Below are positions 6,164-29,692 of a stretch of 32,000 nt of DNA, piece after piece (the stretch's first letter is position 1; the number at the start of each line of letters is the position of its first letter). The translations under genes and the position numbers were made by a program. Under the pieces are notes generated by a model that had not been told where the DNA came from, searched no databases, and saw nothing but the letters and a program-made list of their open reading frames with translations. The DNA comes from Thermodesulfobacteriota bacterium (GTDB lineage: Bacteria > Desulfobacterota > WTBG01 > JAGOGO01), in the NCBI GenBank assembly GCA_026625185.1, contig CP113000.1:975622-1007621 (forward strand), written 5' to 3'.

Positions 6164-6760
6164 TTATTCAAGGAGCTCAGTGTGCCAGTACGAGAGGTCA
6201 ACCAGGTTGAGAAAAGGAAGCCATTCTTTCCGTTTCAAATTCCGCAGAGAAATTTTATAGAATGGAGTCCAGTTTGGCTTTTTCGGTCTATTCAAAAGGT
6301 TCATCCCGGCTTCGTGGGGTGTTCGCCCTCCTTTTTTGCGGTTACAGGTCGCGCAGCAACAGACAATGTTTTCCCACGTGCTCCTTCCTCCGCTGGAACG
6401 AGGAACGACATGATCCAAGCTCAGATCACTCTTGGGGAATTTTTTCCCGCAGTACTGGCAAGTGCTTTTATCCCGGGTGTAGATATTAAGCCTCGTAAAG
6501 CGGACGTGGCCGATGGGCATGCGGTTATAAGTGAGCAAAAGGATGACTCTCGGTATTCTTACCATCCGGTCTACTAATCCGATCGCCTCTTCCCGCTCTA
6601 CTACTGCCAGTTTGCTCCAGCTTTCAAAATCGAAGGTTTTAAATTGTTCATCCACCACCTGAGCAATCCCCAGATAGAGGAGACAGAAAGCTCGGCGGAC
6701 TGAGGTGATATGTAAAGGGAAAAAAGAACGGTTGAGAACTAACACATTGGCATCTATCAT
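6164..6760 (-). CDS. HNH endonuclease domain protein
   Basis: CQYCG...DHVVPRSSGG..WENIVCCCATCNRKKG, i.e. an HNH/zinc-ribbon motif. The start overlaps the selA stop by 4 nt. Confidence 0.8.
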   Translation of the reverse strand: MIDANVLVLNRSFFPLHITSVRRAFCLLYLGIAQVVDEQFKTFDFESWSKLAVVEREEAIGLVDRMVRIPRVILLLTYNRMPIGHVRFTRLNIYTRDKSTCQYCGKKFPKSDLSLDHVVPRSSGGRSTWENIVCCCATCNRKKGGRTPHEAGMNLLNRPKKPNWTPFYKISLRNLKRKEWLPFLNLVDLSYWHTELLE

Positions 6761-8169: not shown

Positions 8170-8218
8170 GAAATTATTGGGTAAACCCCTTTAGAAGGGT
8201 TGCACGCAGGGCATTCAT

Positions 8219-8335
8219 CCCGTTAGAAAAATTTCTACCCCGTGTCAAAACCAGTAAGAATCTTTAATGTTACCCCTGCTTCTGCACCCGGTTAGATATT
8301 TGAGTCTAATTAGGCGGCGGTAATTTTCTAACGGG
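8219..8335. repeat. inverted repeat pair in the selA / lipid-operon intergenic region
   Basis: CCCGTTAGAAAAATT (8219-8233) and AATTTTCTAACGGG (8322-8335) are reverse complements except for one A/T-run length difference. They lie about 90 nt apart. Confidence 0.5.
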
Positions 8336-8623
8336 ACAAAAGGTTTCGCCTTTTATACCACAGGTTTTTCTCAAATGCAAACCAGGCATTCAAAAAACAG
8401 GTGGTATCTTTGTAAAAACCGATAGAAAACCTTTAACGTTTCTTGTTTTTTGCAAGCGCAAGTAGTATGAAATTTTTTAAAAAAGACAAGATGTTATGCA
8501 ATGCAAAGGTAATATAAATAAATTTCTGAATGTCTTTAAGCTCCATCGAACTCAAAATGGAGGGGCAGTTCACTTGGTCTCATATAATGATGACCAAAAA
8601 GATCTGATTCGAAATTGAGAATC

Positions 8624-9202
8624 TCATATTGATTTTATATAAAATCGAGACCACAAAATAATCAATAAAATTCCTATGGTAACATAAATGATATAGAAAA
8701 TGCCCTTAGGCTTTTTAAACTTTATTTTTGACACAAAAAGAAATGCCAGAAGAACCATCGACGCCCTAGTAATCCAGACAACAATTTGCAGTCCAAGAAA
8801 AAAGTAAGAAATTAGAATTAGGGGTAGGAAAAGCGAGACAAATGTCACGGGAATACCCATGAAATATTTTTTCTCTGATGGGAGGGTGTTAAAGACTGCA
8901 AGGCGCCAGATTGCACAACTTACATAAATTAATGTTATAAGGGTATCAATTATTATATTTCCCCCCAAGTTAATAAGAATGAATACCGGGAGAATTCCAA
9001 AACTCACAACATCTATCAAACTGTCCAGTTCTTTTCCAATTGCACTGTTATGAACATTGATCTTTCGTGCAACGTATCCATCAAAAAGATCACATATGCC
9101 CGCTGCAATCAGGCATAAAATTGATAGCATCCAATCCCTATGTGCAAGTATCACCCCTAATAGTGCACAATAGAGTCCTATGAAAGAAATAATGTTTGCC
9201 AT
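8624..9202 (-). CDS. CDP-alcohol phosphatidyltransferase (PssA-like small type)
   Basis: DLFDGYVARK(x9)GKELDSLIDVVS matches the D-x2-D-G-x2-A-R...G-x3-D-x3-D signature, with a spacer one residue longer than the textbook 8. GKELDSL resembles Bacillus-type phosphatidylserine synthase. Polytopic, 192 aa. Headgroup specificity is not inferable. Confidence 0.8.
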   Translation of the reverse strand: MANIISFIGLYCALLGVILAHRDWMLSILCLIAAGICDLFDGYVARKINVHNSAIGKELDSLIDVVSFGILPVFILINLGGNIIIDTLITLIYVSCAIWRLAVFNTLPSEKKYFMGIPVTFVSLFLPLILISYFFLGLQIVVWITRASMVLLAFLFVSKIKFKKPKGIFYIIYVTIGILLIILWSRFYIKSI

Positions 9203-9204
9203 AT

Positions 9205-9528
9205 CTATCTTTCTTCAGCTTCTGAAGCGAATGTCCGGGCCTCAATTTCAAAAGGTATTTCACGAAATGCAGTGGATAATTTTCTATATTTAATTAAATT
9301 CTTTATACCATAATAAATATAATGCATTAACACAATAACCGTACCGTATTTTTTAAATTGAGCAAGGTGCAGAAATTCATGTCTTGAAATTTTGCCTTTG
9401 TAACCCCGACAATATATTGATTTCCCAACCACGATGTATTCAATATTCATTTTCTGCGGGAACCAGTGCTTTTCTTTAACATTGAAGTCGACACCTTCTT
9501 TAAGGTAAATATTATATTTTGATTTCAT
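9205..9528 (-). CDS. small HExxH (zincin-like, DUF4157-like) protein
   Basis: 107 aa. VVGKSIYCRGYKGKISRHEFLHLAQF followed by EIEAR resembles the HExxHxxQ ... ExEA pattern of DUF4157-type minimal metallopeptidase domains. The start shares 1 nt with the upstream stop (TAATG). Confidence 0.4.
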   Translation of the reverse strand: MKSKYNIYLKEGVDFNVKEKHWFPQKMNIEYIVVGKSIYCRGYKGKISRHEFLHLAQFKKYGTVIVLMHYIYYGIKNLIKYRKLSTAFREIPFEIEARTFASEAEER

Positions 9529-10802
9529 TATTCAGCCTTGTAGGTAGTGTCTCTTTGTCTTATTCCCATTCTTTTAAAAATATCTATTGGCTCCATTTTT
9601 GTTACTTCCTGCCATAATGCAAATGTTCTATATTTGGGTAAAGGAAGAAAAGGTGAATTATTAATAGCGTCACTAAGTACATGTACAAGGCACTCTCTGA
9701 CCGGATGCCTGCAATATGGAATAAATTCATTCCAGATCGTCCTAAACCTTTGCTGCATTATATTTCCTATAGCTGTTTTCAAAAGTACGCAGGGTTGAAC
9801 ATTGCCTTGTGCATCAATGTATACATTCTGACCTGAGGTGGCCATACAACCAAAGTTATAGGGTTCTTCATTATACCAAGGCATTACAATGGCTATCTTT
9901 CGTTTGCTCCTGTTTTGTATTTTATAATAGTCAATCAATAATTGCTTATCTTCTTTAGTGAGAAAAATAGTCTTATCTCCTGATTCTTTGGCTCTTCCAA
10001 CCGGTCTGATTTCATTGATTTGAATTGAATGAGCCCCCAATGATTCGGCAAAATCAACCATCTTGAAAATGTCCCCTGAGTTGACCATCCCGCTTGTTGT
10101 GCAGCATACAACGGAATTATAGATACCCAGCGCAGAGGATTCTTTTATTGCTTCACAAGCGCTTTTAAAGGCAATGTTATTTTTCCGCTGCTGATTGTGT
10201 ATTCTTTCATCATAATGATCGAGGCTTATACATATACCCTCAAGTCCTGCCATTTTGAGAATCTTTAATCGCCTGTTGTCTGCCCCAACACCTGAAGTGA
10301 AGATCCTGGTATCCATATGATCTCTTGTGTACCTGATAAACTCCGTGAGATCATCAAAGCGACAAAGGGGCTCTCCACCTACAAAAAACATAACAGTAAA
10401 ATCAGACTTAATTATATCATCAATCGTTTCAAAAATTTTTTCTTTGGGTAAATCCTTATGAATATCCTGAGTATTTTTTACGTGACAATGAAAACAATTG
10501 TTTGGGCATATGTTAGTTATGGATATCTGAGCATGGTTCGGCTTTAAAGGATACTGGTCCACACTGTTGTTATCAAGCATTTTATCATATCGAGGGCCGG
10601 GAAAGTATGGCGCAAATGGGTCAATGAAGTACTTGCTGGCTACTTTTGAATATTTGGTGTCTTTAAAAAGGGAAGATATTATCACTTGTTTTTTGAGCAC
10701 ATAGAGGAACCTGCGGACAGATATTCTACAAGACAGTAGCTTTAAAAGATTGTGCCTTAATACATACCACATCAACCTTGCTTTAAATAACGTCCTTTTC
10801 AT
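9528..10802 (-). CDS. radical SAM enzyme with partial SPASM/twitch-like C-terminal motif
   Basis: CPNNCFHC (C-x3-C-x2-C) at about residue 99. C-terminal C-x13-G-x4-C (CMATSGQNVYIDAQGNVQPC) followed by C-x6-C. About 85 aa of basic N-terminal extension precede the core. Confidence 0.85.
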   Translation of the reverse strand: MKRTLFKARLMWYVLRHNLLKLLSCRISVRRFLYVLKKQVIISSLFKDTKYSKVASKYFIDPFAPYFPGPRYDKMLDNNSVDQYPLKPNHAQISITNICPNNCFHCHVKNTQDIHKDLPKEKIFETIDDIIKSDFTVMFFVGGEPLCRFDDLTEFIRYTRDHMDTRIFTSGVGADNRRLKILKMAGLEGICISLDHYDERIHNQQRKNNIAFKSACEAIKESSALGIYNSVVCCTTSGMVNSGDIFKMVDFAESLGAHSIQINEIRPVGRAKESGDKTIFLTKEDKQLLIDYYKIQNRSKRKIAIVMPWYNEEPYNFGCMATSGQNVYIDAQGNVQPCVLLKTAIGNIMQQRFRTIWNEFIPYCRHPVRECLVHVLSDAINNSPFLPLPKYRTFALWQEVTKMEPIDIFKRMGIRQRDTTYKAE

Positions 10803-11866
10803 ATCGCCATAGGTTCCGTTGTTTTAGTTGTATTCATTCTCCTACCGAAATTCTGTTTTGTTGCAAAGTCCAGCAAGTCGTGTATCCACTGTTCTGTAAT
10901 TTCCTCAGGAGCTTCATACTCCATACCCAACCGTCTTACTGTTGAGGATACATCAAACATTTCTTCCTGTGTAAGATAAGGCAAGAAAATACGTGTTTGC
11001 TTATCGAAAAGCTTCTGCAAATATCCAGTTCCATTGTCTTTTTTTATCGGCAAACTACTTGAACAATCGAAATAATTGATTCCATTTATGTTCATATAAT
11101 CGAATATTAGTTTTAATACCCACGATGTTAAAGGTGGCGCAGGATGGGTGATATAATATATCTCTCCAAATGTGCCGAGACCAATTAGGGAAAGCAACTG
11201 GGAGACGACCCAGTCAACAGGCACAATATTTATTGTGGATGTGGATGAACATGGTACTGAGATAGGTAGTTTCACTGGGTTGGAAATTTTTTTTCTCTGG
11301 CGTAGACTTTTGGCTATGAAATATGGAACCATAGCATATCCGTAAAATCCATTAAAACCGTTAATAGCACAGCTCTTTCTTTCGCCAACGATGACTCCCA
11401 GACGATATATATTGTACGTTAGCCCTGAATTCATCACTAATTTTTCAGCAGCGGACTTACTTATTTCATAGGGGTTTCTCTGAAATGGGGCATAGGCAGT
11501 TGAAATGAAATGCAGATCTGGGATATTAAGAGTTTTTGATAGATTTATTATCCTTTCAGTTCCGCCCTTATTTATATTCCAGGTACGCTTATAGTATTTA
11601 TCGTCAAATTTCACAGCGCTTGCGCAATGTAATACCATATCTATATCGACTGACTTAAGAATGGAAAGGCTTGAATCTGAAAGGCCCAGGTTTTCTTTTT
11701 CAAGGTCGCCTTCAAATAGGTGATCCGGGGGAACGCCAAAACCGAAAAATTTGTCAAACCTTTGCTTGACATTACGAACCAGGGCGTATACTTCATGATG
11801 TAATAATAAAGATGAAATAAGGTGACTCCCCAAGATACCTGTCATTCCGGTCAACAATATCTTCAT
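10799..11866 (-). CDS. extended SDR, thioester-reductase / fatty-acyl reductase-like (NAD_binding_4-like)
   Basis: MKILLTGMTGILGSHL (TGxTGxxG), HCASAVKF, and YEISKSAAE (Y-x3-K with the SK..AE context seen in terminal reductase domains). 4-nt overlap with the next gene. Confidence 0.65.
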   Translation of the reverse strand: MKILLTGMTGILGSHLISSLLLHHEVYALVRNVKQRFDKFFGFGVPPDHLFEGDLEKENLGLSDSSLSILKSVDIDMVLHCASAVKFDDKYYKRTWNINKGGTERIINLSKTLNIPDLHFISTAYAPFQRNPYEISKSAAEKLVMNSGLTYNIYRLGVIVGERKSCAINGFNGFYGYAMVPYFIAKSLRQRKKISNPVKLPISVPCSSTSTINIVPVDWVVSQLLSLIGLGTFGEIYYITHPAPPLTSWVLKLIFDYMNINGINYFDCSSSLPIKKDNGTGYLQKLFDKQTRIFLPYLTQEEMFDVSSTVRRLGMEYEAPEEITEQWIHDLLDFATKQNFGRRMNTTKTTEPMAI

Positions 11867-11868
11867 GT

Positions 11869-12666
11869 TTATCCTGCCTCGTAAAGAGTGAACATGATAA
11901 CCGCCACCGGTCCAAGAATAATCATGCTGTCTAATCGATCCAGCATCCCTCCTTGGGCGCCCATGATCTGTGAAAAATCCTTTATTCCAATCCTCCTCTT
12001 TAGAACACTTGAGCTGGCGTCTCCAATAAATCCACAGGTAAATATAACAACAGCATTCAACAAAATAAGGTAAAAAGGCAGACTGCTCAGATTAAAAACG
12101 TGATAGAAGCTTATCGAAGCTAAAATGCTGAATATGAATCCTCCTATAAATCCGCTCCAGGTCTTGTTGGGGCTGACCAGAGGAAATAGTCGTGGTCCTT
12201 TTAAGCTTTCTCCAACTACCTGCGAAAAAGTGTCGGACACTGACAACACAAAGAGCAAAAATATTAATATTTTATAATTTATCAAAAAGGATAAGTAGAT
12301 ATAACTGGATGCAGCGATAACCGCTATGACTATGCCGGATGCAATCCCGATCGTCTTTTTTAAAGATCCGAAGGTGCTTTCTGCTATTTGATAGATAAAC
12401 TCAAAAAGAGCAACGCTGAATATGGCTATAATAAAAATTATGTAAAAATTCCTGAAGAATATTATGGAAAAGATCATAATCAATTGAAAAGCAAGATACC
12501 TTTTAAGCTTTGCTTTTAATGAGCCTTTGCCACCCTTTTCCAAGGCTAATATATTAAGGTAACTTTCTGCAAACCATCTCAGCCCTTTACTTATGAGAAA
12601 AGCTCCGACAGTCCAGGTAAAAAGAAATAGAAGATAATAAAATAAAAAATGTATTTTATAATCCAT
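11869..12666 (-). CDS. phosphatidate cytidylyltransferase family protein (CdsA-like, variant signature)
   Basis: SPNKTWSGFIGG and SVLKRRIGIKDFSQIMGAQGGMLDRLDS match the CdsA signature as I recall it, except Q where H-G-G normally has His. Polytopic membrane protein. Confidence 0.8.
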   Translation of the reverse strand: MDYKIHFLFYYLLFLFTWTVGAFLISKGLRWFAESYLNILALEKGGKGSLKAKLKRYLAFQLIMIFSIIFFRNFYIIFIIAIFSVALFEFIYQIAESTFGSLKKTIGIASGIVIAVIAASSYIYLSFLINYKILIFLLFVLSVSDTFSQVVGESLKGPRLFPLVSPNKTWSGFIGGFIFSILASISFYHVFNLSSLPFYLILLNAVVIFTCGFIGDASSSVLKRRIGIKDFSQIMGAQGGMLDRLDSMIILGPVAVIMFTLYEAG

Positions 12667-13570
12667 TGAACTTTTCCGGCACCCTCATATTAAGCGCTCC
12701 CTTGTGGCAGCAAAGGTCCCAATGTTCCGATTCAGGGATAACTTCACCATCCCCAAAGGCTGGTACTCTTTTATTATAATAAATACTTATCTTATTGACT
12801 TCCTGCCTACACTGATATCTGTCTTTACTACTGAGTCCCATCTTAATCTTTAATAGGGAATACAGCACAGATTGACAACTGGGATTTTTAAAGAGCAAGA
12901 AATGAAACAATCCATCCGTGGCTTTGGTTCCTGGTGCGACAACGATATTCTTGCCTATGCTTGCTTGGTTTGTAAAAACGCAGGCATGGCTTATATAGTC
13001 CCGAACATCTTCATTATCTGTTATCCTAAAAGAACATGTATTGTTACGAGCAAAAATGGAATGCCACACGAGCAACAGTGAGTATATTTTGTCTCCGGTA
13101 AGCTTCATGAGTAAGGTCCACTTGTGTGATTTCTTTAAACGGTTTGCATTGTCTGCCACCAAAAAGCCCAGGCCAAAGCCCCCTCCAGATACAACATGCC
13201 GTCCATTAGCACTAATGGTGTCATATTTGATTGTTTTTCCATTTTCCAATTGATCCAATGATTTTAAAGGATTCAAAAACAAACCGACCCAGCGGGCAAA
13301 ATCATTGGCGGTACCTGCGGGCACAAGGTTAATTTCTACCGGTTTATTTATTAGATGCTGAATCGTGTGATGTAATGTTCCATCTCCTCCAATAATCAAT
13401 ACCTTACTTACCTCATCTAAAAAGGTGAGCCATCCCGGGCAAGAGATATCTTTGGGTTGCAGAGAATAAAATATCACATCTCCCCAATGTAAGCGTCCTT
13501 TAAGACGGTTTGCGATATCTATGTTCTTAACCGAGCTTACAGCAAGATTATATAAACACAATGTTCGCAT
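12656..13570 (-). CDS. lipid kinase, diacylglycerol-kinase catalytic domain family (YegS/LCB5-like)
   Basis: IIGGDGTLHHTI and PAGTANDFAR motifs. 304 aa, soluble. Confidence 0.8.
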   Translation of the reverse strand: MRTLCLYNLAVSSVKNIDIANRLKGRLHWGDVIFYSLQPKDISCPGWLTFLDEVSKVLIIGGDGTLHHTIQHLINKPVEINLVPAGTANDFARWVGLFLNPLKSLDQLENGKTIKYDTISANGRHVVSGGGFGLGFLVADNANRLKKSHKWTLLMKLTGDKIYSLLLVWHSIFARNNTCSFRITDNEDVRDYISHACVFTNQASIGKNIVVAPGTKATDGLFHFLLFKNPSCQSVLYSLLKIKMGLSSKDRYQCRQEVNKISIYYNKRVPAFGDGEVIPESEHWDLCCHKGALNMRVPEKFNGL

Positions 13571-13588
13571 ACGATTAAGTCTAAAAAT

Positions 13589-14536
13589 TTATACTTTTTT
13601 TAGAATCACGGTTTGCATCGATAAGTTAAGATATTTTTCAAACAGCAGAAAAGGTGCCAGAAATAGTTGCCCGGTAAAATACGGCAAAATTGCCTTCTTC
13701 AAAGTCAAGCCTTTGCCCTTAAGCATCTTGAATGCTGCTCCCGCAAATAGATAGAAATAGGCCGGAAAGGCCCCGTAGGCAAGATAATCTACAAGATCGA
13801 ACCCCTCTTTCTTCACTATTTCGAGAAGATGTTTTTTTGAATACAATACTGTGTGTTGTGGTGACTGAACGCCCGGCCAGCGCGATCCGTAAAGTTTGTA
13901 GGTAAGGCTGTCAAGTCTGGGTACTTCAATAATAAGAATTCCTTTATCCTTCAAGCATTCTTGCGCTTTTTGAAGAGATTCCCGTGGGCGGTAGTCATGC
14001 TCGAGGAAATGCCACATGGTAATTAGGTCATACGAATACGCAGGTAATTTCTGTTCATAAAAAAGGCCCAGATGAAAATCAATCTCATTGAAACCTGGGT
14101 AATATGTGGTATCCTTGAAATCAACACCAACAATACTGCAATGGTATGTTTTTTTTAACAGGAGGAGAAATGTTCCAACAGAACATCCCACATCAAGCAC
14201 ACATGAGTCGGAATTTAGTCTAACATAAGGTTCAATAAGCTTGATTTTGTCCCTATCGTGTTTTCCCATCGCCCAGCTATATAAAGGACTCAAAGGACCT
14301 AATTTTTCATTCTTACGATGGGCAATATAATCGTCCGTATAAAAACGTTTAACCTCATCGATACTTAACCTTGGATTCTGATATATCAAACCGCAAGAAC
14401 GACATCTGACGAAAATAAACCTACCCGGCATGCCTGTTAAATCATCCTCAGCAGTCAAAAAATAATCGGATTCAGTGCTTCCACATAGGTAGCAACAAAT
14501 ATTTTCTGTTTTATAATCTAGTATTAATTTTTTCAT
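13589..14536 (-). CDS. class I SAM-dependent methyltransferase with N-terminal Cys4 zinc ribbon
   Basis: CYLCGS...CRSCGL ribbon, then motif I VLDVGCSVGTF and an acidic post-I loop (GVDF). Confidence 0.75.
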   Translation of the reverse strand: MKKLILDYKTENICCYLCGSTESDYFLTAEDDLTGMPGRFIFVRCRSCGLIYQNPRLSIDEVKRFYTDDYIAHRKNEKLGPLSPLYSWAMGKHDRDKIKLIEPYVRLNSDSCVLDVGCSVGTFLLLLKKTYHCSIVGVDFKDTTYYPGFNEIDFHLGLFYEQKLPAYSYDLITMWHFLEHDYRPRESLQKAQECLKDKGILIIEVPRLDSLTYKLYGSRWPGVQSPQHTVLYSKKHLLEIVKKEGFDLVDYLAYGAFPAYFYLFAGAAFKMLKGKGLTLKKAILPYFTGQLFLAPFLLFEKYLNLSMQTVILKKV

Positions 14537-14549
14537 TATTTCCCGTTAT

Positions 14550-15335
14550 TCAGCCCGATATAGCCAACAAACACAGATATATCACTCCATTGGTAAAAGG
14601 TATAAACTTAAGATTTCGAACCCTTTCATATTTTATTGTCAAGAAAAATAAAGCTATGCAAAGGGATAGGAGACCCCATTTTATCCACTCAGAGGGGTTA
14701 CCGTGGTAATTTAGAATTATATGAGAGGCAAAGCCAATCGACAGGAACAACCAGGCGATAAAACCAGCTTTTAAATAATTCATGTCCGAGAGGTGCTCCC
14801 GGTCATGAAAGGTTTCATAAACGAAGAGAATTAAGTAAATGATTATTAGTGGTAATATTTTTTCTCTAAAAGGTGCGCTTTCAGAAGAAGTAATAAAAGC
14901 AATTACCGGATATTTTATCAGGATAAAAAGGTCGAACATGAGAGGATGCAGTTTCTCTCGTAGAAAATAGATAAGCATAAAGAACAGTGCAAAAATAAAA
15001 GCAATTATCAGTATGGAGATATTATGTAATTTATAAATTATGAAAAAAGACATAAGGAATATAATAAATAACCACTTCCAGAGAATTAATGCATTACCAG
15101 GATTGACGGTAACCCTGTTCGGTGAAGTCTTTCGATCTTTCTTGATTGAGCAGAGATCATCCCAGAGGCGCAATCCCAAAAGCAGCAACAATGCGGAAGC
15201 AAACCTTACAAAAATATCAAATTTATTAGTAAGATGTTGAATAGAAGTTTCGCTACCTATTGATAGAAGAATTCCTAACGGGATAAAGAGGAAAAGATTG
15301 AATCGTTCTTTAAAATATTGAACTATAAGAATCAT
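14550..15335 (-). CDS. polytopic membrane protein, possible divergent UbiA-superfamily member
   Basis: About 8 hydrophobic segments. RLWDDLCSIKKDRKTSPNRVTVNPG sits where UbiA enzymes carry NDxxDxxxD...R.xNRPLxxG, with Ser in place of the middle Asp. A second acidic patch is YETFHDREHLSD. Confidence 0.35.
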   Translation of the reverse strand: MILIVQYFKERFNLFLFIPLGILLSIGSETSIQHLTNKFDIFVRFASALLLLLGLRLWDDLCSIKKDRKTSPNRVTVNPGNALILWKWLFIIFLMSFFIIYKLHNISILIIAFIFALFFMLIYFLREKLHPLMFDLFILIKYPVIAFITSSESAPFREKILPLIIIYLILFVYETFHDREHLSDMNYLKAGFIAWLFLSIGFASHIILNYHGNPSEWIKWGLLSLCIALFFLTIKYERVRNLKFIPFTNGVIYLCLLAISG

Positions 15336-17998
15336 ATTACCTCTTCAAGAAAAACAACCGATCTATCTGCATCAAGCAAAACCCGCTGACCGTCTATTAA
15401 TCTGGTTGTAGCATCCTTTACTCCCACCAAGGTCGGAATCCCATATTCTCTGGCAATTATAGCCCCGTGAGAAAGCATCCCTCCTCTTTCAAGAATAAGT
15501 CCAGAAATTATTGGAAATGCTGGTGCCCAGCCAGGGTCGGTTTGCTTGGTCACAAGTATATCTCCCTTCTCAATCAAACCAATGGATGTTATGTCTTTAA
15601 CAATCCTTGTCCTTCCTATAACCCTGCCCTCACAGGCGCTGTACCCGGTTAAGAAACATTTTTCTATTTCCGGAACTTTCCCGATCTCCAAGGGATTGTT
15701 CTTTTCGGAGGAATAGTACTCTCCTGCAGGCAGGCGAAAACTTTCCGGCGGGGACGATTTCACATCATCTGAATATTTATTCTTCCTCTGTCTGATGACC
15801 TCCCTTATCAGAACCGGAAGGTGACATGCCGACAGATTTTCTATTTCAGAGTATTTTAAGAACAGGGCATCTTCAGCATTCTGAATAAGATGCTTTTTCT
15901 TGAAAATGGTGCCCAAGGCAAGCAAAGAATGTCTGCACTGGTTATAAAGCCTGGCTTGTTTCAATCTCACCCTTTCCCGGTATCTGATACCTTGATGTGC
16001 CAAAAAGATTGAGAACCTGATAATTATTTTGCGATATAATCCTGTTAACACCCCACAGTCTTTCCCAGCGTGTTCCAGTATCTGCTTGGTAACTTCAATC
16101 CTTCTATGGATCTGCGTTTTTAATTGTTCCTCCGGTGAGTGAAAAGGATTTTTCAAATAGCTTTTGAGAAGATCTATTAGTTTCTCTGGTGCTTCATTAT
16201 AATCCGCACGCGTTAAAAGTAATTCCCCTGAAATACGGTATCCCCATTTCTTCTGATACTCCACAAAGGCTCTGTGAAAATCATCGAACTCTTCCCCTTG
16301 AGTCAACACAGACATTATGTTTTTAGGATCATTTTCACCAAATAACCTATATAAACCGTAATTGTTCTTGATCATTTGGGTGAGCTCCCAAAATCTCTGA
16401 GGCGGCTCATGACTCACCAGATTTGGTATTCCAACGAGCAATTGATGAACATTTGTTGATCGTGATCGGGCGTATGTCTCCACAGAAGAACGAAGTAAAC
16501 CATACCCGAACATGGCAAGAGCGTCCGCAAGAGAGGCGTCTTTCCACTTATGCATACGAATATGAATAAAATTCATAATATCTGTTTTATATCTGTTTAC
16601 GTCATGCTCCTTCTCAGGGGAATTGCATTCTTTAAAATGAATGTCGGCTTGTTTTTCAAACCTTTTAACATATAGGGGAAGACACAAAATATGTTTTAAG
16701 GACCGAGAACCAAGCTTGAAAAAATAAAGGTATCTTGCCGGCCTGTTTTTTGACAGAAATTTATCCGGCAAATTATCATAGGGCAGGTCATATATCCCTA
16801 TAAAAGAATCCCAGTATTTCTTGGCAAGATCGGGAAAAGGCAATGCACTCAGACATTCATAAATATTGGTAAGATTATAGTACATTCTACTTTGATGGAA
16901 ATCGATTATGGTTTCAAAGGCTGGCTCTAACTTTTTGCGGACCTTGCGACTGACCCCAAGCAATCTAGCCAAATTTCTGAAATAGTGATAATATCCATTT
17001 TTTGCAAACGACATAAGAAATGGAGTAAGCGCTTCAGGAAAATTTTCATTCACATTAACATTGGACCATAAACAAGACGCATCGTTTTTCTGATTCTGCG
17101 CGGTTACCGGCCTGGATTGAAGTAACCATAACTTTTTTGATTTATCAATGGTCCACTCTATATCTTGTTGCCTTCCGGTATTCTGTTTAGCATCTTTGGC
17201 GATAGCAACAAGATTCTTAATATTCGCAATCTGAGTGTCGAGAAAACCATTTCCGTTGTTTCCCGCAGAAGAACCGGCAATTCTCAATCCCGCAGCTTCA
17301 TCATAAATCAGAATCTGCTCAGGGTTTTCCCTTCCGCCTACAAGCTGTTCTCCGGCGCCCCTGACATATTCGAGTACTAATGGTTTATTTCCGTCCTTCC
17401 GGATCTGGGAGAGAGGATGGGTGGTAAATAACACACCTGAAAATTCCGACTGAATATAAGGTTGCACGATAACCGACATGCCGCCTAAAATTGTGTTACG
17501 GTTACACTGATAACTGATGCTTTTTGATTTCCAATAAGACATCCAGCACTGAAGAAGAGCGTCATGACAGGCGCTCTCGAATTTCTTTTTACTGTCCGTT
17601 ACTGCAGAATCTAGTTGCCCCGCAAAGGAGTTCTCGTTGGAGTCCTCTCCAATGGCTGAGCTACGGAATATCAATTCTGATTTTCCAAACACTTTTTTGA
17701 TGGCTTCATAAATATCACTGAATAACGAACTCTCAATTCCTTTCTTGAGAAGAGCATCACACAATTTTTCAGAATACCTCATGACTGAGCGGATGTCATT
17801 CAAATTTTCATCATTGTCATGAACCTCGGCAAGAGCCTTCTTTGAATAATCCTCAAAGGCCTGTGTACCAATTATCAATGTCTTGGGTATAGATATTCCC
17901 ATCCTATTTAAGGTGTATAATGACTCTGCTTTTCCACCTGTTATGTGGGACGATTTTACCTTTGAGAGAGGAAAAGAATATTTGATTTTTTTATTCAT
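15332..17998 (-). CDS. PEP-utilising-enzyme family phosphotransferase with rifampin-phosphotransferase-like architecture
   Basis: N-terminal PPDK_N-type ATP-grasp (GGKAESLYTL...QDIEWTIDK..LWLLQSRPVT), about 450 aa of helical middle region, and a C-terminal swivel domain (TDPGWAPAF...ERGGMLSHGAIIAREYGIPTLVG). Start moved to MNKKIKYSF (ATG at 17998), which overlaps the upstream stop as ATGAATAA. Confidence 0.75.
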   Translation of the reverse strand: MNKKIKYSFPLSKVKSSHITGGKAESLYTLNRMGISIPKTLIIGTQAFEDYSKKALAEVHDNDENLNDIRSVMRYSEKLCDALLKKGIESSLFSDIYEAIKKVFGKSELIFRSSAIGEDSNENSFAGQLDSAVTDSKKKFESACHDALLQCWMSYWKSKSISYQCNRNTILGGMSVIVQPYIQSEFSGVLFTTHPLSQIRKDGNKPLVLEYVRGAGEQLVGGRENPEQILIYDEAAGLRIAGSSAGNNGNGFLDTQIANIKNLVAIAKDAKQNTGRQQDIEWTIDKSKKLWLLQSRPVTAQNQKNDASCLWSNVNVNENFPEALTPFLMSFAKNGYYHYFRNLARLLGVSRKVRKKLEPAFETIIDFHQSRMYYNLTNIYECLSALPFPDLAKKYWDSFIGIYDLPYDNLPDKFLSKNRPARYLYFFKLGSRSLKHILCLPLYVKRFEKQADIHFKECNSPEKEHDVNRYKTDIMNFIHIRMHKWKDASLADALAMFGYGLLRSSVETYARSRSTNVHQLLVGIPNLVSHEPPQRFWELTQMIKNNYGLYRLFGENDPKNIMSVLTQGEEFDDFHRAFVEYQKKWGYRISGELLLTRADYNEAPEKLIDLLKSYLKNPFHSPEEQLKTQIHRRIEVTKQILEHAGKDCGVLTGLYRKIIIRFSIFLAHQGIRYRERVRLKQARLYNQCRHSLLALGTIFKKKHLIQNAEDALFLKYSEIENLSACHLPVLIREVIRQRKNKYSDDVKSSPPESFRLPAGEYYSSEKNNPLEIGKVPEIEKCFLTGYSACEGRVIGRTRIVKDITSIGLIEKGDILVTKQTDPGWAPAFPIISGLILERGGMLSHGAIIAREYGIPTLVGVKDATTRLIDGQRVLLDADRSVVFLEEVI

Positions 17999-18767
17999 AT
18001 GAAACATTGTGCATCTTGTTATGAAACTCAACAAAAATATCCCTTACCATTTTCCTGTTCTTATCAAGATCATCAAGAACCCATTTGCTGGTCTCTACTT
18101 CCGGCAGAATGTAAACATCCACATGGCCACCCAAAGTCCTATAACCCCTACCCGGATCTATTTCCGATGGTATGTAAATATAAATCGGAACAATTGGTAC
18201 CTTCATATTGGTCGCTAGGTGAAACGCACCTTTATTGAATTTTGATATTCTTCCCGTTGTGGTAACTGCGCCTTCAGGAGAAAGGATCACAGACTCTCCG
18301 GTCTTACGCAATTTGACTTCTGCACGTTTAAAACATTCAGTCCTCTTTCTTGGTTTGTGTTGCTGGTCAATCAGAAATGTCCCGATAAAAAAGTTTATTA
18401 TGGTGACGGGAATATATTTATAGGTCGCTTTTGACATAAAGTACCGCGTATTATTGAAGCCGATCGCCGGTAAGAGCACCACATCAATAGTGGAGGTGTG
18501 ATTAATCACATATATTTTCTGTGAATTTGACAAATCGTCCTGATGATGAACGGTATAGGTAATGCCAAACATCCGCAAAATCATCGCGCAACCGGGACGG
18601 ACAATATACCGGCAACATATATTTCTTAGCTTAAAAAAGGTGCTGATTTGAAAAATTGCAACGATAAAGGCAGTGATAAACAATACGGTTACTGCTGAGG
18701 GAATAAGGATCAGCAAACGCACAGGGAATTTTCTCTTTGCTTTTTTATCAGGCTTTGCAGCGATCAT
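17991..18767 (-). CDS. lysophospholipid/glycerol-3-phosphate acyltransferase family (PlsC-like) with N-terminal TM anchor
   Basis: NHTSTID (H-x4-D) and SPEGAVTTTG (PEG block). GGGAG lies 8 nt upstream of the ATG. First gene of the ten-gene unit. Confidence 0.8.
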   Translation of the reverse strand: MIAAKPDKKAKRKFPVRLLILIPSAVTVLFITAFIVAIFQISTFFKLRNICCRYIVRPGCAMILRMFGITYTVHHQDDLSNSQKIYVINHTSTIDVVLLPAIGFNNTRYFMSKATYKYIPVTIINFFIGTFLIDQQHKPRKRTECFKRAEVKLRKTGESVILSPEGAVTTTGRISKFNKGAFHLATNMKVPIVPIYIYIPSEIDPGRGYRTLGGHVDVYILPEVETSKWVLDDLDKNRKMVRDIFVEFHNKMHNVSYE

Positions 18768-19040
18768 AAATCGCTCCCGTGAAACAGGTGTGTCTCATAC
18801 CCATTTTGCATCAAGGTCGTCAGTTAACTATTTGACAGAGTCCCCCTCGCTGGATATTGGCGGCAAAGTTCTCGGTTACCCTAATAATATATCTTCCCCA
18901 AAAATTACCACTGCCACCTCTGTATTTCAACGAAAATATTGTGCTCATCATTTACATCAAAAAATTTGCCGGTATGGTTACAGGGGCATTATTGAAAAGA
19001 TGGAGGCATTCTGTCTGTCGCTTTAATGCAAATTAATTAC

Positions 19041-19118
19041 TTAGTCATTTTCAGCAAATTTCTAGGTATTTTATATCATAAATACCACCTTTATTCTGCT
19101 TGCGCACAAAATCGCACC
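19041..19118. repeat. repeat A, copy 1 (~80 bp, near identical to 25389-25468)
   Basis: TTAGTCATTTTCAGCAAATTTCTAGGTATTTTATATCATAAATACCACCTTTATTCTGCTTGCGCACAAAATCGCACC. It differs from copy 2 by two substitutions and a 2-nt A-run length change, by eye. Confidence 0.9.
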
Positions 19119-19245
19119 ACCGTTAAAAAGAACTAGAAACCATGTTAATATGGCAACCCTTTTTTAACCGAAACATTCTTATATCCTTTCCTCCGCAAGA
19201 TTCCGGATAATTCTTCTTAACCTGAACTATCCAACGGTTAAACAG

Positions 19246-19261
19246 TGCAATGGCCGTGCCA
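19246..19261 (-). promoter_or_regulatory. sigma-54 (-24/-12) promoter, copy 1
   Basis: The minus strand reads TGGCACGGCCATTGCA, a perfect TGGCAC-N5-TTGC(A) element. Confidence 0.7.
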
Positions 19262-19278
19262 GGGCGCGGAGATATTTA

Positions 19279-19291
19279 TAACTAATTGATT
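19279..19291 (-). promoter_or_regulatory. IHF-like site, copy 1
   Basis: The minus strand reads AATCAATTAGTTA, which fits WATCAANNNNTTR. It lies 17 nt upstream of the -24 element. Confidence 0.35.
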
Positions 19292-19369
19292 ATTAATTAT
19301 TTTATGCAAAAACTCGAATTAGGCTTTGAAAAGGAGGGGAATTTTAATGTTCACAAAAAGCACTATGCT

Positions 19370-19386
19370 TATACAAAAAATGTATA
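19370..19386. promoter_or_regulatory. palindromic upstream activator site candidate, copy 1
   Basis: TATACA-AAAAA-TGTATA. Its centre lies about 119 bp upstream of the -24 GG. Confidence 0.55.
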
Positions 19387-19508
19387 GCTATGAGGTGTTT
19401 TCTGAAGGGAGTCGCCCGGTATTTTTAAGCAGGGTTCACGGGGCAGGGAAGACTGAGGAGGGCATACCAAAAGCAAAATGAGGATTTTTAGCTTTACCGC
19501 TTGCTCCC

Positions 19509-19646
19509 TCACAGCTTCTTGAGCTTTGCCGGTACTATCGTCTCCCTAAGCAGCTTTTCCACCCCTTCTGCACCTACCCGATTACGCCATCTCGCCAGTG
19601 AGCTCGGGTCTAAGGGAAACTCATGTTGAAAATACACAACGGGTGC
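19509..19646 (-). pseudogene. IS5-like (DUF772-type N-terminal domain) transposase remnant
   Basis: The minus-strand frame, bounded by stops, reads APVVYFQHEFPLDPSSLARWRNRVGAEGVEKLLRETIVPAKLKKL. The YFQ.EFP.DPSSL.RWR.R.G..G.E.LL..TI pattern is typical of the N-terminal region of IS5/IS1182-type transposases. There is no start codon and no DDE domain. Confidence 0.5.
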
Positions 19647-19847
19647 TTACGGTTTATCATCTGTTCTAAGCGGGATCTAAACAAATCCTTTTGTCCGCTT
19701 GATTTCATCCTTTTCGGCATCAAAAATCACCAGCTTTTGAAGGGTTAATTACCCTTTTCTGGTGAATATATTATGTTTTTTCCCTAATTAAAACGAATTA
19801 TATCAATCTGTTAAACGTTTTTTCAGGAGCGACTATTTATAAAAAAT

Positions 19848-19874
19848 TTGACAAGAAAAATATTTATATATAAT
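19848..19874 (+). promoter_or_regulatory. candidate sigma-70-type promoter for the BCR/HGD-family operon
   Basis: TTGACA (19848-19853) and TATAAT (19869-19874) with a short 15-nt spacer. Alternatively TAATTT at 17 nt. About 90 nt upstream of the GTG at 19961. Confidence 0.4.
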
Positions 19875-19960
19875 TTATATGTGTTGAACAAAATCGTATT
19901 AACTTTACAGTTAACTAACTTTTCTATAGTCATATCAACTTAATAAAAGGAGGTCTAATT

Positions 19961-21082
19961 GTGGCAATCGAGGAATTAATACGGATTGGTGAAACTATAT
20001 ATAACAAATATATTGATGATTGGAAAAAAGAGGGGAAGAGAGTTATTGGGTACACTTGCAGTTATGCGCCTGAAGAGATCCTGCAAGCCGCCGGTCTTCT
20101 GCCTATTAGGCTCAAGGCCATTGGTTCCAGCGAAACCAGTAAGGCAGACGTGTATATGCCGAAATTCCACTGCACTTTTTCAAGGCATCTGTTGGATCAG
20201 GGCATGTCTAATGCCTTTGATTTTGTTGATGGGATTGTCTTTGTTAACTCATGCGACCAGCTAAGACGAATGTATGATGTGTGGAATAAGCTTGTAAAAT
20301 TTCCATATCAAACCATTATGGTCATGCCCTATTCCTACGATAAAGAGGATTTTGAATGGTACCTGGAGCACGAGGTTAAGAAGCTTAAGAGCGACCTGGA
20401 GACAGCTTATGGGGCAAAAATTACCGACAGCTCGTTAAGCGAGTCAATAAACATTTTCAACGAAACCAGAAACCTTCAGGCCAGATTGTATGAAATGAGA
20501 GGCGCAAAAGAACCCAGAATCAACGGGGTGGACACCCATAAGATCATCACGGCTGCAACCTCTATGCCCAAGAAAAAATACAACGAATTGCTGAAAGCGT
20601 CCCTCGAGGAGCTGAAAAAGAGGCCGGGTATTACAGATTACCGGGCCCGCATTCTCATCGGAGGAAGCATGATAGATGAGCCGGAATTACTGCAGGTTAT
20701 CGAGGATGCCGGGGGTCTTGTGGTTGCAGACGTGTTGTGCACCGGCACCAGATGGACCACGGATAAAGTGGAAACGGACGGTGACCCCCTTTACGCCATT
20801 GCCAAACGATATTACGATCATCAACCATGTCCAAGAATGACCATGGTTTACGAGCGAAAACGTGATTTTGTACTGGATCAGGCAAAGAAAAATCAGGTGG
20901 ATGGGGCTATCTTTTCCAAAATCGCCTTTTGTGATCATCATTCTGGAGACAATGTTCTTTACCAGGAGGATCTTGAGAAGGAGGGTATTCCATCTTTGCT
21001 GCTGGATAGAGATTACAGGATAACCGACGTGGGCCGATTCAGGACAAGAATCGAGGCCTTTTTTGAAAAACTTGGTAAATAA
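19961..21082 (+). CDS. BCR/HGD-family subunit, small HGD-D-type (BcrC/BzdN/HgdB-like)
   Basis: 373 aa. GYTCSYAPEEIL..AG..P, VNSCDQ, and the C-terminal DGAIFSKIAFCDHH block are typical of 2-hydroxyacyl-CoA dehydratase / benzoyl-CoA reductase core subunits. GTG start 7 nt after AAGGAGG. Confidence 0.75.
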   Translation: MAIEELIRIGETIYNKYIDDWKKEGKRVIGYTCSYAPEEILQAAGLLPIRLKAIGSSETSKADVYMPKFHCTFSRHLLDQGMSNAFDFVDGIVFVNSCDQLRRMYDVWNKLVKFPYQTIMVMPYSYDKEDFEWYLEHEVKKLKSDLETAYGAKITDSSLSESINIFNETRNLQARLYEMRGAKEPRINGVDTHKIITAATSMPKKKYNELLKASLEELKKRPGITDYRARILIGGSMIDEPELLQVIEDAGGLVVADVLCTGTRWTTDKVETDGDPLYAIAKRYYDHQPCPRMTMVYERKRDFVLDQAKKNQVDGAIFSKIAFCDHHSGDNVLYQEDLEKEGIPSLLLDRDYRITDVGRFRTRIEAFFEKLGK

Positions 21083-21096
21083 AAGGAGGGTCGGCT

Positions 21097-22518
21097 ATGA
21101 AACCGGTTCCTAAAGAGTTAGAAGGTATAGAGCTGTTTCAAAGGTATTTAACCACCTTTAACCTAATTAATATTGCTTTGACTAATTTCAAAACAGTCGA
21201 AGATCTTATGGCCGCGGCGCCGGAGATCTTAAAGACCCTGCCGGAATATGATGTCGGGGTTTTTCAGTCCCTTAGGCCGGATATTGTTATCGCGGCCTTC
21301 CATCCAAAAAACAGGAATGTGGTACTGAAATGTGCGCAGGCCCAAATAAAATTTTGGCAGGGCATAATAGATGACATCAAGGCAGACAAGCCGCAGTTGG
21401 ATTTTTGGTTTGCGCAAGGTCCGGAACTATTCCGCGCGCTGGGATTTTCCCCGCTATGCACTGAAACCACGTTGGTTGCCTCTGCAATTTATCAGGATGG
21501 ATGTGAAGATGCCACTGACTTATTCAGGTCTAAAGGATTTGCCGATCATATCTGCACCGCCAATGTGGCCTACCCCGGATATGTGATGAATGGCAACTGG
21601 AAGGTTCCCCATGTTATGGTAAAGCCCGGGACTCCCTGTCCTTCAAGCAACCTGGCCTACCAGGCCATAAAGAAATGGTATGGCAATGATTACATCATGT
21701 ATGACTCCACATACTATCTTGACGAAAAAGGCTTGGCCCATCAGACGGATGCCATTCGAAGGGCCATAGCCAAATTGGAGAAGATCTCGGGACAAAAGCT
21801 TGATGAAGCTGTCCTCAGGCAGCAGATGAAGGAAAGCAACCAAACCTACGCCCTTTGCGGTGAGCTTCTTGAGCTCAGGAAAAACAAGCCCAATCCTGAT
21901 CCGGGCATGCACCGTATCCTTGACCTGCTCATGATGGTCACACTTCTCGGAGAGCCTTCATGTACCGAATACTTTCAGCTTCTTGTGGACGAAGCGAAGG
22001 AAAGGGTGGCCAAAGGAGTGGGGGCAATCCCGGAGGGCAAAAAGGAGATCAGGGCGCTTCACACTTGGGCCCTTAACGCATATATGCCGGACCTTTATCA
22101 CTGGCTGGAGGAGACCTATGGGATGACTTACCTTACCTGTGGACTCTCCTATTTCGTTAACCATCAGGTGGATACCTCTTCGGCGGATTCCATGGTCGAG
22201 GGATGGGCCCAGAGGATTATGAACTTTACTATGGAAAGGCAGAGCATGAGCTTTGGTGATGTCTGGGTTGATGATATGTTTTATCTGGCAAAGAACTGGG
22301 ATGCTGACTGCGGCATATTCGCGGGAAACCTGTCATGCAAGCAGGGTTGGGCCATGAGTAAACTGCTGGGCGACCGACTGGAGGATGAACTTGGTATACC
22401 GTCGGTAAGATTTGAAATCGAATTGTGCGATAAACGCACCTGCCCCCCTGATGAGTTCAAGCACCGTATCGGGAGTTTTGTGGAAACCATTTTAACAAAC
22501 TCAAAAAAGAGAGTTTGA
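21097..22518 (+). CDS. BCR/HGD-family subunit, large HGD-D-type (BcrB/BzdO/HgdA-like)
   Basis: 473 aa. The C-terminal DADCGIFAGNLSCKQGW block and overall size fit the larger core subunit. AAGGAGG lies upstream of the ATG. Confidence 0.7.
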   Translation: MKPVPKELEGIELFQRYLTTFNLINIALTNFKTVEDLMAAAPEILKTLPEYDVGVFQSLRPDIVIAAFHPKNRNVVLKCAQAQIKFWQGIIDDIKADKPQLDFWFAQGPELFRALGFSPLCTETTLVASAIYQDGCEDATDLFRSKGFADHICTANVAYPGYVMNGNWKVPHVMVKPGTPCPSSNLAYQAIKKWYGNDYIMYDSTYYLDEKGLAHQTDAIRRAIAKLEKISGQKLDEAVLRQQMKESNQTYALCGELLELRKNKPNPDPGMHRILDLLMMVTLLGEPSCTEYFQLLVDEAKERVAKGVGAIPEGKKEIRALHTWALNAYMPDLYHWLEETYGMTYLTCGLSYFVNHQVDTSSADSMVEGWAQRIMNFTMERQSMSFGDVWVDDMFYLAKNWDADCGIFAGNLSCKQGWAMSKLLGDRLEDELGIPSVRFEIELCDKRTCPPDEFKHRIGSFVETILTNSKKRV

Positions 22519-22520
22519 CA

Positions 22521-24104: not shown

Positions 24105-24122
24105 AAAGGTTAGGAACCAGCT

Positions 24123-26855: not shown

Positions 26856-27043
26856 CGCTGCAATCTTCCTCCTCTTAAATGATCTTTTGATCTTTTCACA
26901 TTAAACTGCCACGCCGATTTACTTCACTGAAACCCGACCTCGATTCAGGTTTCTTTTATTCGATAAACCCTGCACCAGCCCTCATTTATAGCCCCACAGC
27001 AATCATTGTCACCCTCGACTTTCAAGTCTTTATTATAGGCCTT

Positions 27044-27439: not shown

Positions 27440-27480
27440 TTTATTTTTCTGCCTTCATACGGAGAGGAGTTCCAATGCGC

Positions 27481-28881: not shown

Positions 28882-28961
28882 TTTTTTTACCTCCTTTCAT
28901 TTGATTTCAGAAACCAGTGGTAAAAAAAGCAATGGCCGTCCTCCGTTTACTCTCCAGGCTT

Positions 28962-29678: not shown

Positions 29679-29692
29679 ATGATTACTCCTTA

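Follow-up and report, generated by a model that had tools for sequence, protein, structure and literature searches.

An apparently horizontally acquired ten-gene operon in a Thermodesulfobacteriota bacterium may encode a pathway for a specialized, fatty-alcohol-derived phospholipid

A stretch of 32,000 nucleotides from a Thermodesulfobacteriota bacterium (GenBank assembly GCA_026625185.1, contig CP113000.1, positions 975,622 to 1,007,621; here called the window, whose own numbering is used throughout) carries ten co-directional open reading frames (ORFs) on its minus strand, running from position 18767 down to 8624, which we name g1 to g10 in the direction of transcription. We propose that this operon is, on balance, probably an acquired accessory pathway for a specialized phospholipid that is derived from a fatty alcohol and is possibly ether linked. 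Ether lipids and other unusual membrane lipids of bacteria serve as environmental biomarkers and matter for the “lipid divide” between bacteria and archaea, and several steps in their biosynthesis have no known genes. The operon appears to be a phospholipid biosynthetic unit with an unprecedented combination of enzymes and offers a candidate pathway that could be expressed as one ten-gene unit. Its relatives form a compact, cross-phylum cluster that ties the formation of a fatty alcohol to two kinases, to a membrane transferase of the UbiA fold, and to headgroup chemistry of the CDP type, occurs in desaturase and radical S-adenosylmethionine (SAM) forms, and includes three protein families without curated annotation, namely, the UbiA-like branch to which g3 belongs, the radical SAM family of g8, and the zincin-like family of g9. 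A first-pass annotation of the bare sequence had already read the operon as a dedicated, non-housekeeping pathway for a specialized membrane lipid, for example a fatty-alcohol-derived one, and had not recognized the gene combination as a described cluster. That reading was largely right in kind, and the pathway is apparently undescribed: no published description of the combination was found in the literature searched, including work on ether-lipid genes in sulfate reducers and on Rph-like enzymes in lipid clusters, and the lipocone paper does not cover the cluster (PMC12419801).

The ten ORFs mostly overlap, by 1 nt at 9528, 4 nt at 10799-10802, 11 nt at 12656-12666, and 4 nt at 15332-15335. 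A fifth overlap, between g1 and g2 at 17991-17998, depends on g2 being translated from the ATG at 17998; the alternative starts (ATG at 18007 and TTG at 18034) overlap g1 as well. The other intergenic gaps measure 2, 2, 13, and 18 nt. The coordinates of the first-pass annotation were reproduced, and one tightly coupled expression unit is supported. The operon and both of its intergenic flanks make up a low-GC island (8170 to 19960, not assigned to a strand). The GC content is 0.384 in the operon and 0.37 to 0.38 in the flanking spacers, versus 0.452 and 0.443 in the neighboring genes, in agreement with the AT richness noted at first reading; third-codon-position GC is 0.30 to 0.42 in the operon versus 0.46 to 0.56 in the flanks. 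The upstream spacer (1.2 kb) holds a frameshifted and truncated remnant of an IS5-family transposase gene (19509 to 19720, minus strand), recognized by reading two frames and by tblastn, with 55 to 72% identity to annotated IS5-family transposases (E values down to 5e-8). Because the island is low in GC, is adjoined by this remnant, and has its nearest relatives in other phyla, horizontal acquisition of an operon of foreign composition is supported. Scans for repeats around the island gave no notable flanking direct or inverted repeats, an Rfam scan of the whole window returned no RNA family, and a promoter and terminator scan found no more sites than were found in shuffled sequences.

Families were assigned with Pfam, housekeeping identity was judged against the curated equivalog cutoffs of NCBIfam, and the nearest solved structures were sought in the PDB. 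Eight of the ten products match named families in Pfam or NCBIfam, the exceptions being g3 and g9. The families that had been read from motifs thus stood for these eight; the UbiA assignment of g3 is reached only through its predicted fold and its homologs, and g9 does contain an HExxH motif but does not match DUF4157, the family suggested for it. All ten products score below every curated NCBIfam cutoff, and no curated model covers g3, g8, or g9. Since all scores fall under the equivalog cutoffs, the operon products do not appear to be housekeeping enzymes and are best described, from these scores, as probable divergent paralogs. The earlier claim that this is not the housekeeping glycerolipid route therefore held, as judged by the scores, the island composition, and the insertion sequence remnant, and the separate pgpA that it cited (2720 to 3181) was confirmed at the family level.

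The product of g1 (17991 to 18767, 258 amino acids [aa]) is a PlsC/AGPAT-type acyltransferase with HxxxxD and PEG motifs (PF01553, 9e-19) that scores 66 bits against a cutoff of 103 for TIGR00530 and 41.5 against 501 for PRK15018; an acyltransferase of this type is kept in nearly all related clusters. A CdsA-family cytidylyltransferase, whose signature has QGG in place of HGG, is encoded by g6 (11869 to 12666, 265 aa; CTP_transf_1, 3e-33; 74.3 bits against a PRK11624 cutoff of 385), and a CDP-alcohol phosphatidyltransferase of the PssA/archaetidylserine-synthase type is encoded by g10 (8624 to 9202, 192 aa; PF01066, 9e-15), which reaches 85.5 bits with the pssA model TIGR00473 (cutoff, 107) and 85 with arch_ser_synth. 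The headgroup enzymes of relatives likewise score best with PssA or archaetidylserine synthase models. A YegS/DgkB-type lipid kinase with a GGDGT motif is encoded by g5 (12656 to 13570, 304 aa; DAGK_cat and YegS_C); it obtains 82 bits with TIGR00147, for which the cutoff is 119, and its PDB matches are DgkB and BmrU.

A thioester-reductase-like extended short-chain dehydrogenase/reductase (SDR) with TGxTGxxG and YxxxK motifs is encoded by g7 (10799 to 11866, 355 aa; NAD_binding_4, 4e-31), and the solved structure nearest to it is the MxaA terminal reductase 4u7w, an enzyme that reduces a thioester to an alcohol. The Rph/PEP-synthase-like dikinase g2 (15332 to 17998, 888 aa; PPDK_N, 5e-43; PEP-utilizers, 1e-24; Rph_4th in the precomputed annotation) combines an ATP-grasp domain, the Rph fourth domain, and a swivel-His domain, without a PEP/pyruvate-binding domain. 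Its nearest solved structures are the rifampin phosphotransferases 5fbs and 5hv1 (2e-48), and its bit scores are far from the cutoffs of the models for Rph (228 versus 999), PEP_synth (195 versus 740), and PigC (230 versus 1300). The class I SAM methyltransferase g4 (13589 to 14536, 315 aa; Methyltransf_23, 3e-20) bears an N-terminal CxxC...CxxC element and is 51 to 65% identical across phyla; a sequence search of the PDB with g4 gave generic methyltransferases only and no close solved relative.

Related loci were collected from close radical SAM homologs in species-representative genomes, from contigs encoding radical SAM homologs, and from a metagenome scan with a g3 profile, and were compared by tblastn with all families. 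Conservation as a unit in relatives had been set beforehand as a test of the first reading, and the genes proved to stay together in no fewer than six phyla (Bacteroidota, Planctomycetota, Spirochaetota, Latescibacterota, Gammaproteobacteria, and Desulfobacterota), as well as in 41 loci from metagenomes. A Spirochaetota locus (L009) shares nine of the window's ten genes. Nine were also detected, in another order, in a Latescibacterota locus (L014), in which g3 gave only a weak tblastn match in a gap without called genes and g9 was not found. The same functional set occurs in Prolixibacteraceae (L003 to L006 and L011), a gammaproteobacterium (L010), a planctomycete (L007), Desulfobacterota-type metagenome-assembled genomes (L008 and L017), a “Candidatus Electrothrix” protein, and many metagenome contigs. 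The invariant block consists of the cytidylyltransferase, the Rph-like dikinase, the UbiA-like g3, the methyltransferase, and the acyltransferase. The g3 profile scan yielded 41 loci, of which all except L053 retain a g3 match, and wherever the contig reaches far enough, every locus has the dikinase gene upstream and the methyltransferase and then the acyltransferase gene downstream; the g2 homolog always lies directly upstream of the g3 homolog and usually overlaps it. Relatives usually have a CDP-alcohol transferase of the PssA type, but some versions of the cluster lack both this enzyme and CdsA. Further signs of mobility are the transposase genes beside L014 and L016, and in the Prolixibacteraceae locus L003 (3451 to 4926) a DDE transposase has been inserted in the HMG-CoA-reductase-APH gene, of which only the ends are left, so this copy of the cluster is decaying. 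As judged from its distribution, the cluster family appears to move between phyla.

Three steps are swapped among versions of the cluster: the reductase and kinase, the cytidylyltransferase, and the pair of radical SAM protein and g9, which is exchanged with a membrane fatty-acid desaturase. Reduction and phosphorylation are assigned to an SDR and a DAGK-type kinase in the window and in L014, where the two genes adjoin. Most relatives have, in place of g5, an APH-type kinase that is joined to the reductase in one polypeptide, and these fusions take the forms NAD_binding_4-APH, HMG-CoA_red-APH, ACP-NAD_binding_4-APH following a fatty acyl-AMP ligase (FAAL), and FAAL-ACP-TR-APH (where ACP is acyl carrier protein and TR is thioester reductase), the commonest form among relatives being FAAL-ACP-thioester reductase. 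These recurrent fusions of reductase and kinase favor the fatty-alcohol-derived lipid envisaged at first reading. The cytidylyltransferase is CdsA in the window and CarS-like in most relatives, and a kinase followed by a cytidylyltransferase is found in both flavors, as DAGK-CdsA or as APH-CarS. The sole PDB match of a stand-alone APH kinase in L008 is a weak one to ACAD11, and the kinase domain of ACAD10 has been reported to phosphorylate 1-O-alkylglycerols (PMC13596139); together, these suggest that a lipid hydroxyl would be a natural substrate for an APH-type kinase.

Several relatives have additional genes. In L013 (4782 to 11620), a fusion of radical SAM protein and g9 is immediately preceded by genes for a PigE-like reductase-aminotransferase (898 aa) and a second PPDK-like protein, which suggests that this version may use a fatty amine in place of a fatty alcohol phosphate. 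In L062 (1 to 17212), the PPDK-UbiA pair lies on the strand opposite a triple fusion gene (described below), together with a B12-binding radical SAM gene, a second PPDK-like gene, and a DUF3419 gene, which we take to belong to the BtaA-like betaine-lipid synthase family. In L012 (6947 to 12248), the radical SAM-g9 fusion is followed by a PAP2_3-family gene and has upstream of it, on the opposite strand, a gene for an 823-aa member of the phospholipase D family; the retrieved part of L012 shows no CDP-alcohol transferase. The metagenome contig L024 (6126 to 14699) holds a full desaturase-type cluster and, convergent with it, a partial set comprising a CDP-alcohol transferase, CarS, and a PPDK-like gene.

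The protein g3 (14550 to 15335, 261 aa), which belongs to the invariant block, is predicted from its modeled fold and its homologs to be an integral membrane transferase resembling the UbiA superfamily. Its invariant residues are RLWDD...D(R), KYP, and D178. A search of PDB sequences with the family profile (alignment A1) found no UbiA match, and the family member P0011 reaches 24 bits with PF01040, which is under the gathering cutoff. An AlphaFold (AF2) model built from 13 homologs (predicted local distance difference test score [pLDDT], 79) retrieved in Foldseek the archaeal DGGGP synthase (DGGGPS; 6m31 and 7bpu) at the top, followed by the archaeal UbiA homologs ApUbiA and AfUbiA (4od4 and 4tq3 being in the list) and by the membrane-bound PRTase 8j8k/8j8j, presumably the mycobacterial Rv3806c. 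The matches within the superfamily have probabilities of 0.99 to 1.0 and TM-scores of 0.54 to 0.60, and there is essentially nothing outside it. The protein at the g3 position in L062 has a clear PF01040 match, and both this protein and distant members of the g3 family have the canonical UbiA motif DDxxDxxxD. The model and these homologs indicate that g3 has the all-helical membrane fold of UbiA.

The radical SAM protein g8 (9528 to 10802, 424 aa; Radical_SAM and SPASM in Pfam) has a C-terminal domain of the SPASM/twitch type, and its homologs fall into 98 clusters of close relatives, with 52 to 64% identity across phyla. In 39 aligned sequences (alignment A4), Cys99, Cys103, and Cys106 of the CxxxCxxC motif are invariant, as are Cys234, Cys319, Cys338, and Cys371; the last four suggest an auxiliary cluster of the oxidative SPASM/twitch type. 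The nearest NCBIfam models, NirJ2 and AhbD, are far from being satisfied, and the PDB matches are SkfB, BlsE, and MoaA, with no tetraether synthase chain among the matches at E values of 1e-3 or below. The idea that g8 couples lipid tails was not supported, there being no detectable relation to the solved tetraether synthase, and the distribution described below indicates a role equivalent to that of a desaturase instead.

The partner of g8 is g9 (9205 to 9528, 107 aa), a small zincin-like protein with invariant HEFLHxxQF and PFExEAR motifs (alignment A2). H50, E51, H54, Q57, E94, and E96 are invariant and coincide with predicted helices, giving an HExxHxxQ element and a downstream acidic helix. 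Even at E values of up to 10, g9 has no Pfam match and thus none to DUF4157/PF13699, and its model (pLDDT, 88) found no fold match in the PDB with Foldseek. The link to PF13699 (the former DUF4157, now eCIS_core) is only transitive, through the remote relative P0251 at 22.3 bits, which is at the cutoff. In about a quarter of the homologs, g9 is fused to the C terminus of the radical SAM protein (500 to 560 aa), and P0125 from L062 is a 794-aa triple fusion of acyltransferase, radical SAM protein, and g9, from which we infer that the three act on one lipid. A role as a maturase of peptides that are made by ribosomes and modified after translation (RiPPs) was considered and rejected, since g9 is a conserved and often fused HExxH domain and not a variable precursor peptide. 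Elsewhere, the radical SAM-g9 pair follows and overlaps the stand-alone APH kinase gene in L008 (1743 to 4515) and occurs alone beside the transposase gene in L016 (10001 to 11612).

In the unbiased sample of g3-anchored loci of at least 9 kb, the desaturase and the radical SAM gene never occur together: eight loci have only the former, and one has the radical SAM-g9 pair and no visible desaturase. Of the 12 radical SAM-anchored clusters, 10 are without a desaturase. The desaturase belongs to PF00487, and its nearest match is the Bacillus delta-5 Des, at a low score. Di-iron membrane desaturases require oxygen. Given this requirement, the distribution, and the auxiliary-cluster cysteines, the radical SAM-g9 pair may accomplish without oxygen what the desaturase or hydroxylase does in other versions, in which case the window carries an anaerobic version of the pathway.

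These observations can be arranged in a putative pathway. In relatives, reductases of two unrelated folds form fusions with a kinase, and FAAL and carrier domains lie upstream of reductases; the pathway would therefore start from a carboxylic acid thioester, most likely that of a fatty acid. The SDR g7 would reduce the acyl thioester to a primary fatty alcohol, and g5 would phosphorylate it to an alkyl phosphate, two reactions that most relatives would carry out in one polypeptide. UbiA-fold enzymes take diphosphate donors, and Rph-type dikinases phosphorylate hydroxyls via a phospho-histidine; in view of these chemistries and of the constant adjacency of the two genes, g2 may supply the activated donor for its neighbor g3 by a further phosphorylation, most simply to an alkyl diphosphate. 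The alkyl group could then be transferred by g3 to a glycerol-phosphate-type acceptor with formation of an ether bond, and the free hydroxyl could be acylated by g1. The gene order of kinase and cytidylyltransferase and the PssA-type transferase suggest CDP activation of the lipid, presumably by g6, and then addition of a serine-type headgroup by g10. The oxidative step for which other versions use a di-iron desaturase or hydroxylase of the membrane would fall to the g8-g9 pair, acting without O2, and g4 would methylate the lipid. The predicted product is an alkyl- or alkenyl-acyl glycerophosphoserine-like lipid.

A number of points weigh against this arrangement. On chemical grounds, the chief difficulty is the donor, since saturated alkyl diphosphates are ill suited to the carbocation chemistry of UbiA-type enzymes; one might speculate that desaturation makes an allylic intermediate and so solves the problem. 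The cluster has no gene for glycerol-phosphate supply or for a first-ether synthase. The “complete” pathway suggested at first reading is unproven, since no backbone-forming step is evident. The protein g3 has no Pfam match, even at E values of up to 10, and the g3 subgroup of the window has DDx6D, having lost the middle Asp of DDxxDxxxD. No reductase is encoded in the clusters of L009 and L017. Counter to an exchange of radical SAM gene and desaturase, the two Prolixibacteraceae loci L004 and L005 have both the radical SAM-g9 pair and the desaturase, and in L008 and L016 the pair is not accompanied by the other cluster genes. Finally, the roles given here to g4 and g9 are tentative.

In a more specific form of the proposal, which we consider possible though doubtful, the cluster family would be a missing way for bacteria to make non-isoprenoid alkyl ether glycerophospholipids by archaeal logic, through double phosphorylation of a fatty alcohol (by an APH- or DAGK-type kinase and then by the Rph-like dikinase), transfer to glycerol phosphate by a UbiA/DGGGPS-fold enzyme, the action of CarS or CdsA and a serine synthase, and allylic or vinyl unsaturation introduced by a desaturase where oxygen is used or by the radical SAM-zincin pair where it is not. 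If true, such a route would bridge the “lipid divide” enzymatically and could account for alkyl glycerol ether biomarkers in sediments. Independently of this form, the cluster resembles the archaeal segment of DGGGPS, CarS, and archaetidylserine synthase in joining a UbiA-fold transferase with CTP-dependent activation and a serine-type CDP-alcohol transferase. It differs in that the chain apparently comes from a fatty acid, in having an acyltransferase that forms esters, and in that the window has CdsA and not CarS.

The nearest described system is the myxobacterial ether-lipid operon elbA-E, in which ElbD has a FAR-like reductase, an acyl-CoA synthetase, an ACP, and an AGPAT-like acyltransferase and for which the ether-forming enzyme is still unknown (PMC9131029). 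In both systems, a fatty acid appears to be activated, loaded on a carrier, and reduced, and the reductase module is linked to a PlsC/AGPAT-type acyltransferase, with FAAL, ACP-TR, and acyltransferase in a row in relatives of the operon. Of these modules, the window encodes just the acyltransferase and, as the reductase-like one, the SDR; it has no FAAL or ACP. Relatives have all four modules and a kinase domain in addition. Unlike in elb, the reductase here is fused or adjacent to a kinase, and the cluster adds the Rph-like dikinase, the UbiA-fold protein, the methyltransferase, the cytidylyltransferase, the CDP-alcohol transferase, and the radical SAM-g9 pair or desaturase. In sulfate reducers, ether lipid formation has been ascribed to a modified PlsA named Ger (PMC13159169), which is unrelated to any operon product; a system of the PlsA-PlsR/Ger type was rejected for the operon, which has no gene of the benzoyl-CoA-reductase (BCR)/2-hydroxyacyl-CoA-dehydratase (HAD) family.

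Likenesses to other known systems are partial. As in the bacterial CDP-diacylglycerol pathway, members of the PlsC, CdsA, and PssA families would provide acylation, CMP transfer, and headgroup exchange, but the enzymes of the cluster appear to be divergent paralogs in a mobile ten-gene unit, and CdsA is exchangeable with CarS. The rifampin phosphotransferases and PigC, RedH, and TamQ share with g2 the ATP-grasp, substrate-binding, and swivel-His domains and the lack of a PEP/pyruvate TIM barrel, but g2 is far under the curated cutoffs and always coupled to a UbiA-like membrane protein, and its substrate is probably a lipid phosphate or alcohol. The presence of a di-iron desaturase-family gene or a radical SAM gene in alternative versions of one cluster recalls the oxygen-dependent and -independent pairs HemF/HemN and AcsF/BchE. 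Equivalence here, unlike in those pairs, is suggested by distribution only, and the desaturase is of PF00487 and not of the CarF family (the CarF/PEDS1 lipid desaturase).

The main rival to an ether-linked glycerophospholipid is a phospholipid without glycerol, which we judge unlikely. A long-chain alcohol or diol would be converted to an alkyl phosphate, a CDP-alkanol, and finally an alkyl-phospho-serine, with g1 acylating the secondary hydroxyl of a diol backbone and g2 to g4 modifying something else. Such a scheme fits the position of the reductase-kinase fusions directly before CarS or CdsA and the general knowledge that CDP-alcohol transferases accept many CDP-alcohols. No glycerol-backbone gene turned up in the loci, in which the tblastn comparisons were not screened for glycerol 1-phosphate (G1P) dehydrogenase or geranylgeranylglyceryl phosphate synthase (GGGPS), and Thermomicrobium, which has diol-based, methyl-branched lipids, also counts in its favor. 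It nevertheless leaves the invariant, translationally coupled pair of dikinase and g3 without a role, and the cluster has no obvious maker of a 2- or 3-hydroxy acid, a task that could be given to the desaturase/hydroxylase-family protein or to the radical SAM protein only by speculation.

The operon could also make a lipid-like secondary metabolite or signal, in which a fatty alcohol or amine is condensed with a second building block by a PigC/TamQ-like dikinase, as in tambjamine or prodiginine biosynthesis; we think this quite improbable. The full-length, sub-cutoff matches of g2 to the PigC and RedH models, the PigE-like reductase-aminotransferase and second PPDK-like gene beside the radical SAM-g9 fusion in L013, and the patchy distribution and association with mobile elements would all agree with it. 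Against these stands the conservation of three integral-membrane enzymes of the phospholipid type (the cytidylyltransferase, the CDP-alcohol transferase, and the PlsC-type acyltransferase), and neither the operon nor its relatives contain pyrrole, polyketide synthase, or nonribosomal peptide synthetase genes.

An isoprenoid ether phospholipid of the archaeal type, made in bacteria by proteins resembling HMG-CoA reductase (HMGR), CarS, DGGGPS, and archaetidylserine synthase, seems very unlikely to us, even though the Prolixibacteraceae clusters have HMG-CoA_red domains (1e-96), relatives have CarS-like genes, DGGGPS is the best fold match for g3, and archaetidylserine synthase models score level with pssA. 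G1P dehydrogenase and GGGPS are not among the Pfam-annotated genes of the window and the radical SAM-homolog loci (the other loci were not screened for either), and polyprenyl synthase genes are likewise absent from the loci examined. Further, the commonest form, with FAAL-ACP-thioester reductase, indicates fatty acids, the PlsC-type acyltransferase is invariant, and the window has CdsA and an SDR rather than CarS and HMGR. An ordinary housekeeping PlsC/CdsA/PssA operon with unrelated neighbors is hardly credible despite the presence of these three domain families, given bit scores of 41.5 versus 501, 74 versus 385, and 85.5 versus 107 against the equivalog cutoffs, the foreign GC content and insertion sequence remnant, the recurrence of the ten-family set across phyla with nonorthologous replacements, and the versions of the cluster without CdsA and the CDP-alcohol transferase.

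The genes that flank the proposed lipid operon include selA, a GSU2086-family gene, and BCR/HAD-type reductase genes, and they appear to fit an anaerobic member of the Thermodesulfobacteriota. Divergent from the operon, on the plus strand (19961 to 24935) and with host-like GC content, are five genes, which encode a MinD-like ATPase, two activases of the acyl-CoA-dehydratase type, and two HGD-D subunits (373 and 473 aa); the HGD-D and activase genes (19961 to 24104) belong to the superfamily of the anaerobic plasmalogen and ether enzymes PlsA/PlsR/Ger, fall beyond the island, and do not accompany the cluster at any other locus. Between selA and rluD, a stand-alone 198-aa HNH endonuclease (6164 to 6760, minus strand) has its best NCBIfam matches in the HNH segments of Cas9d and IscB. 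At the other end of the window (25521 to 31995, minus strand), six consecutive ORFs of 444, 131, 466, 248, 467, and 139 aa have no Pfam or NCBIfam match; most have lipoprotein-like N termini (e.g., LNGCAT and LFGCAT), and two of them (27481 to 28881 and 29913 to 31316) are paralogs with 50% identity.

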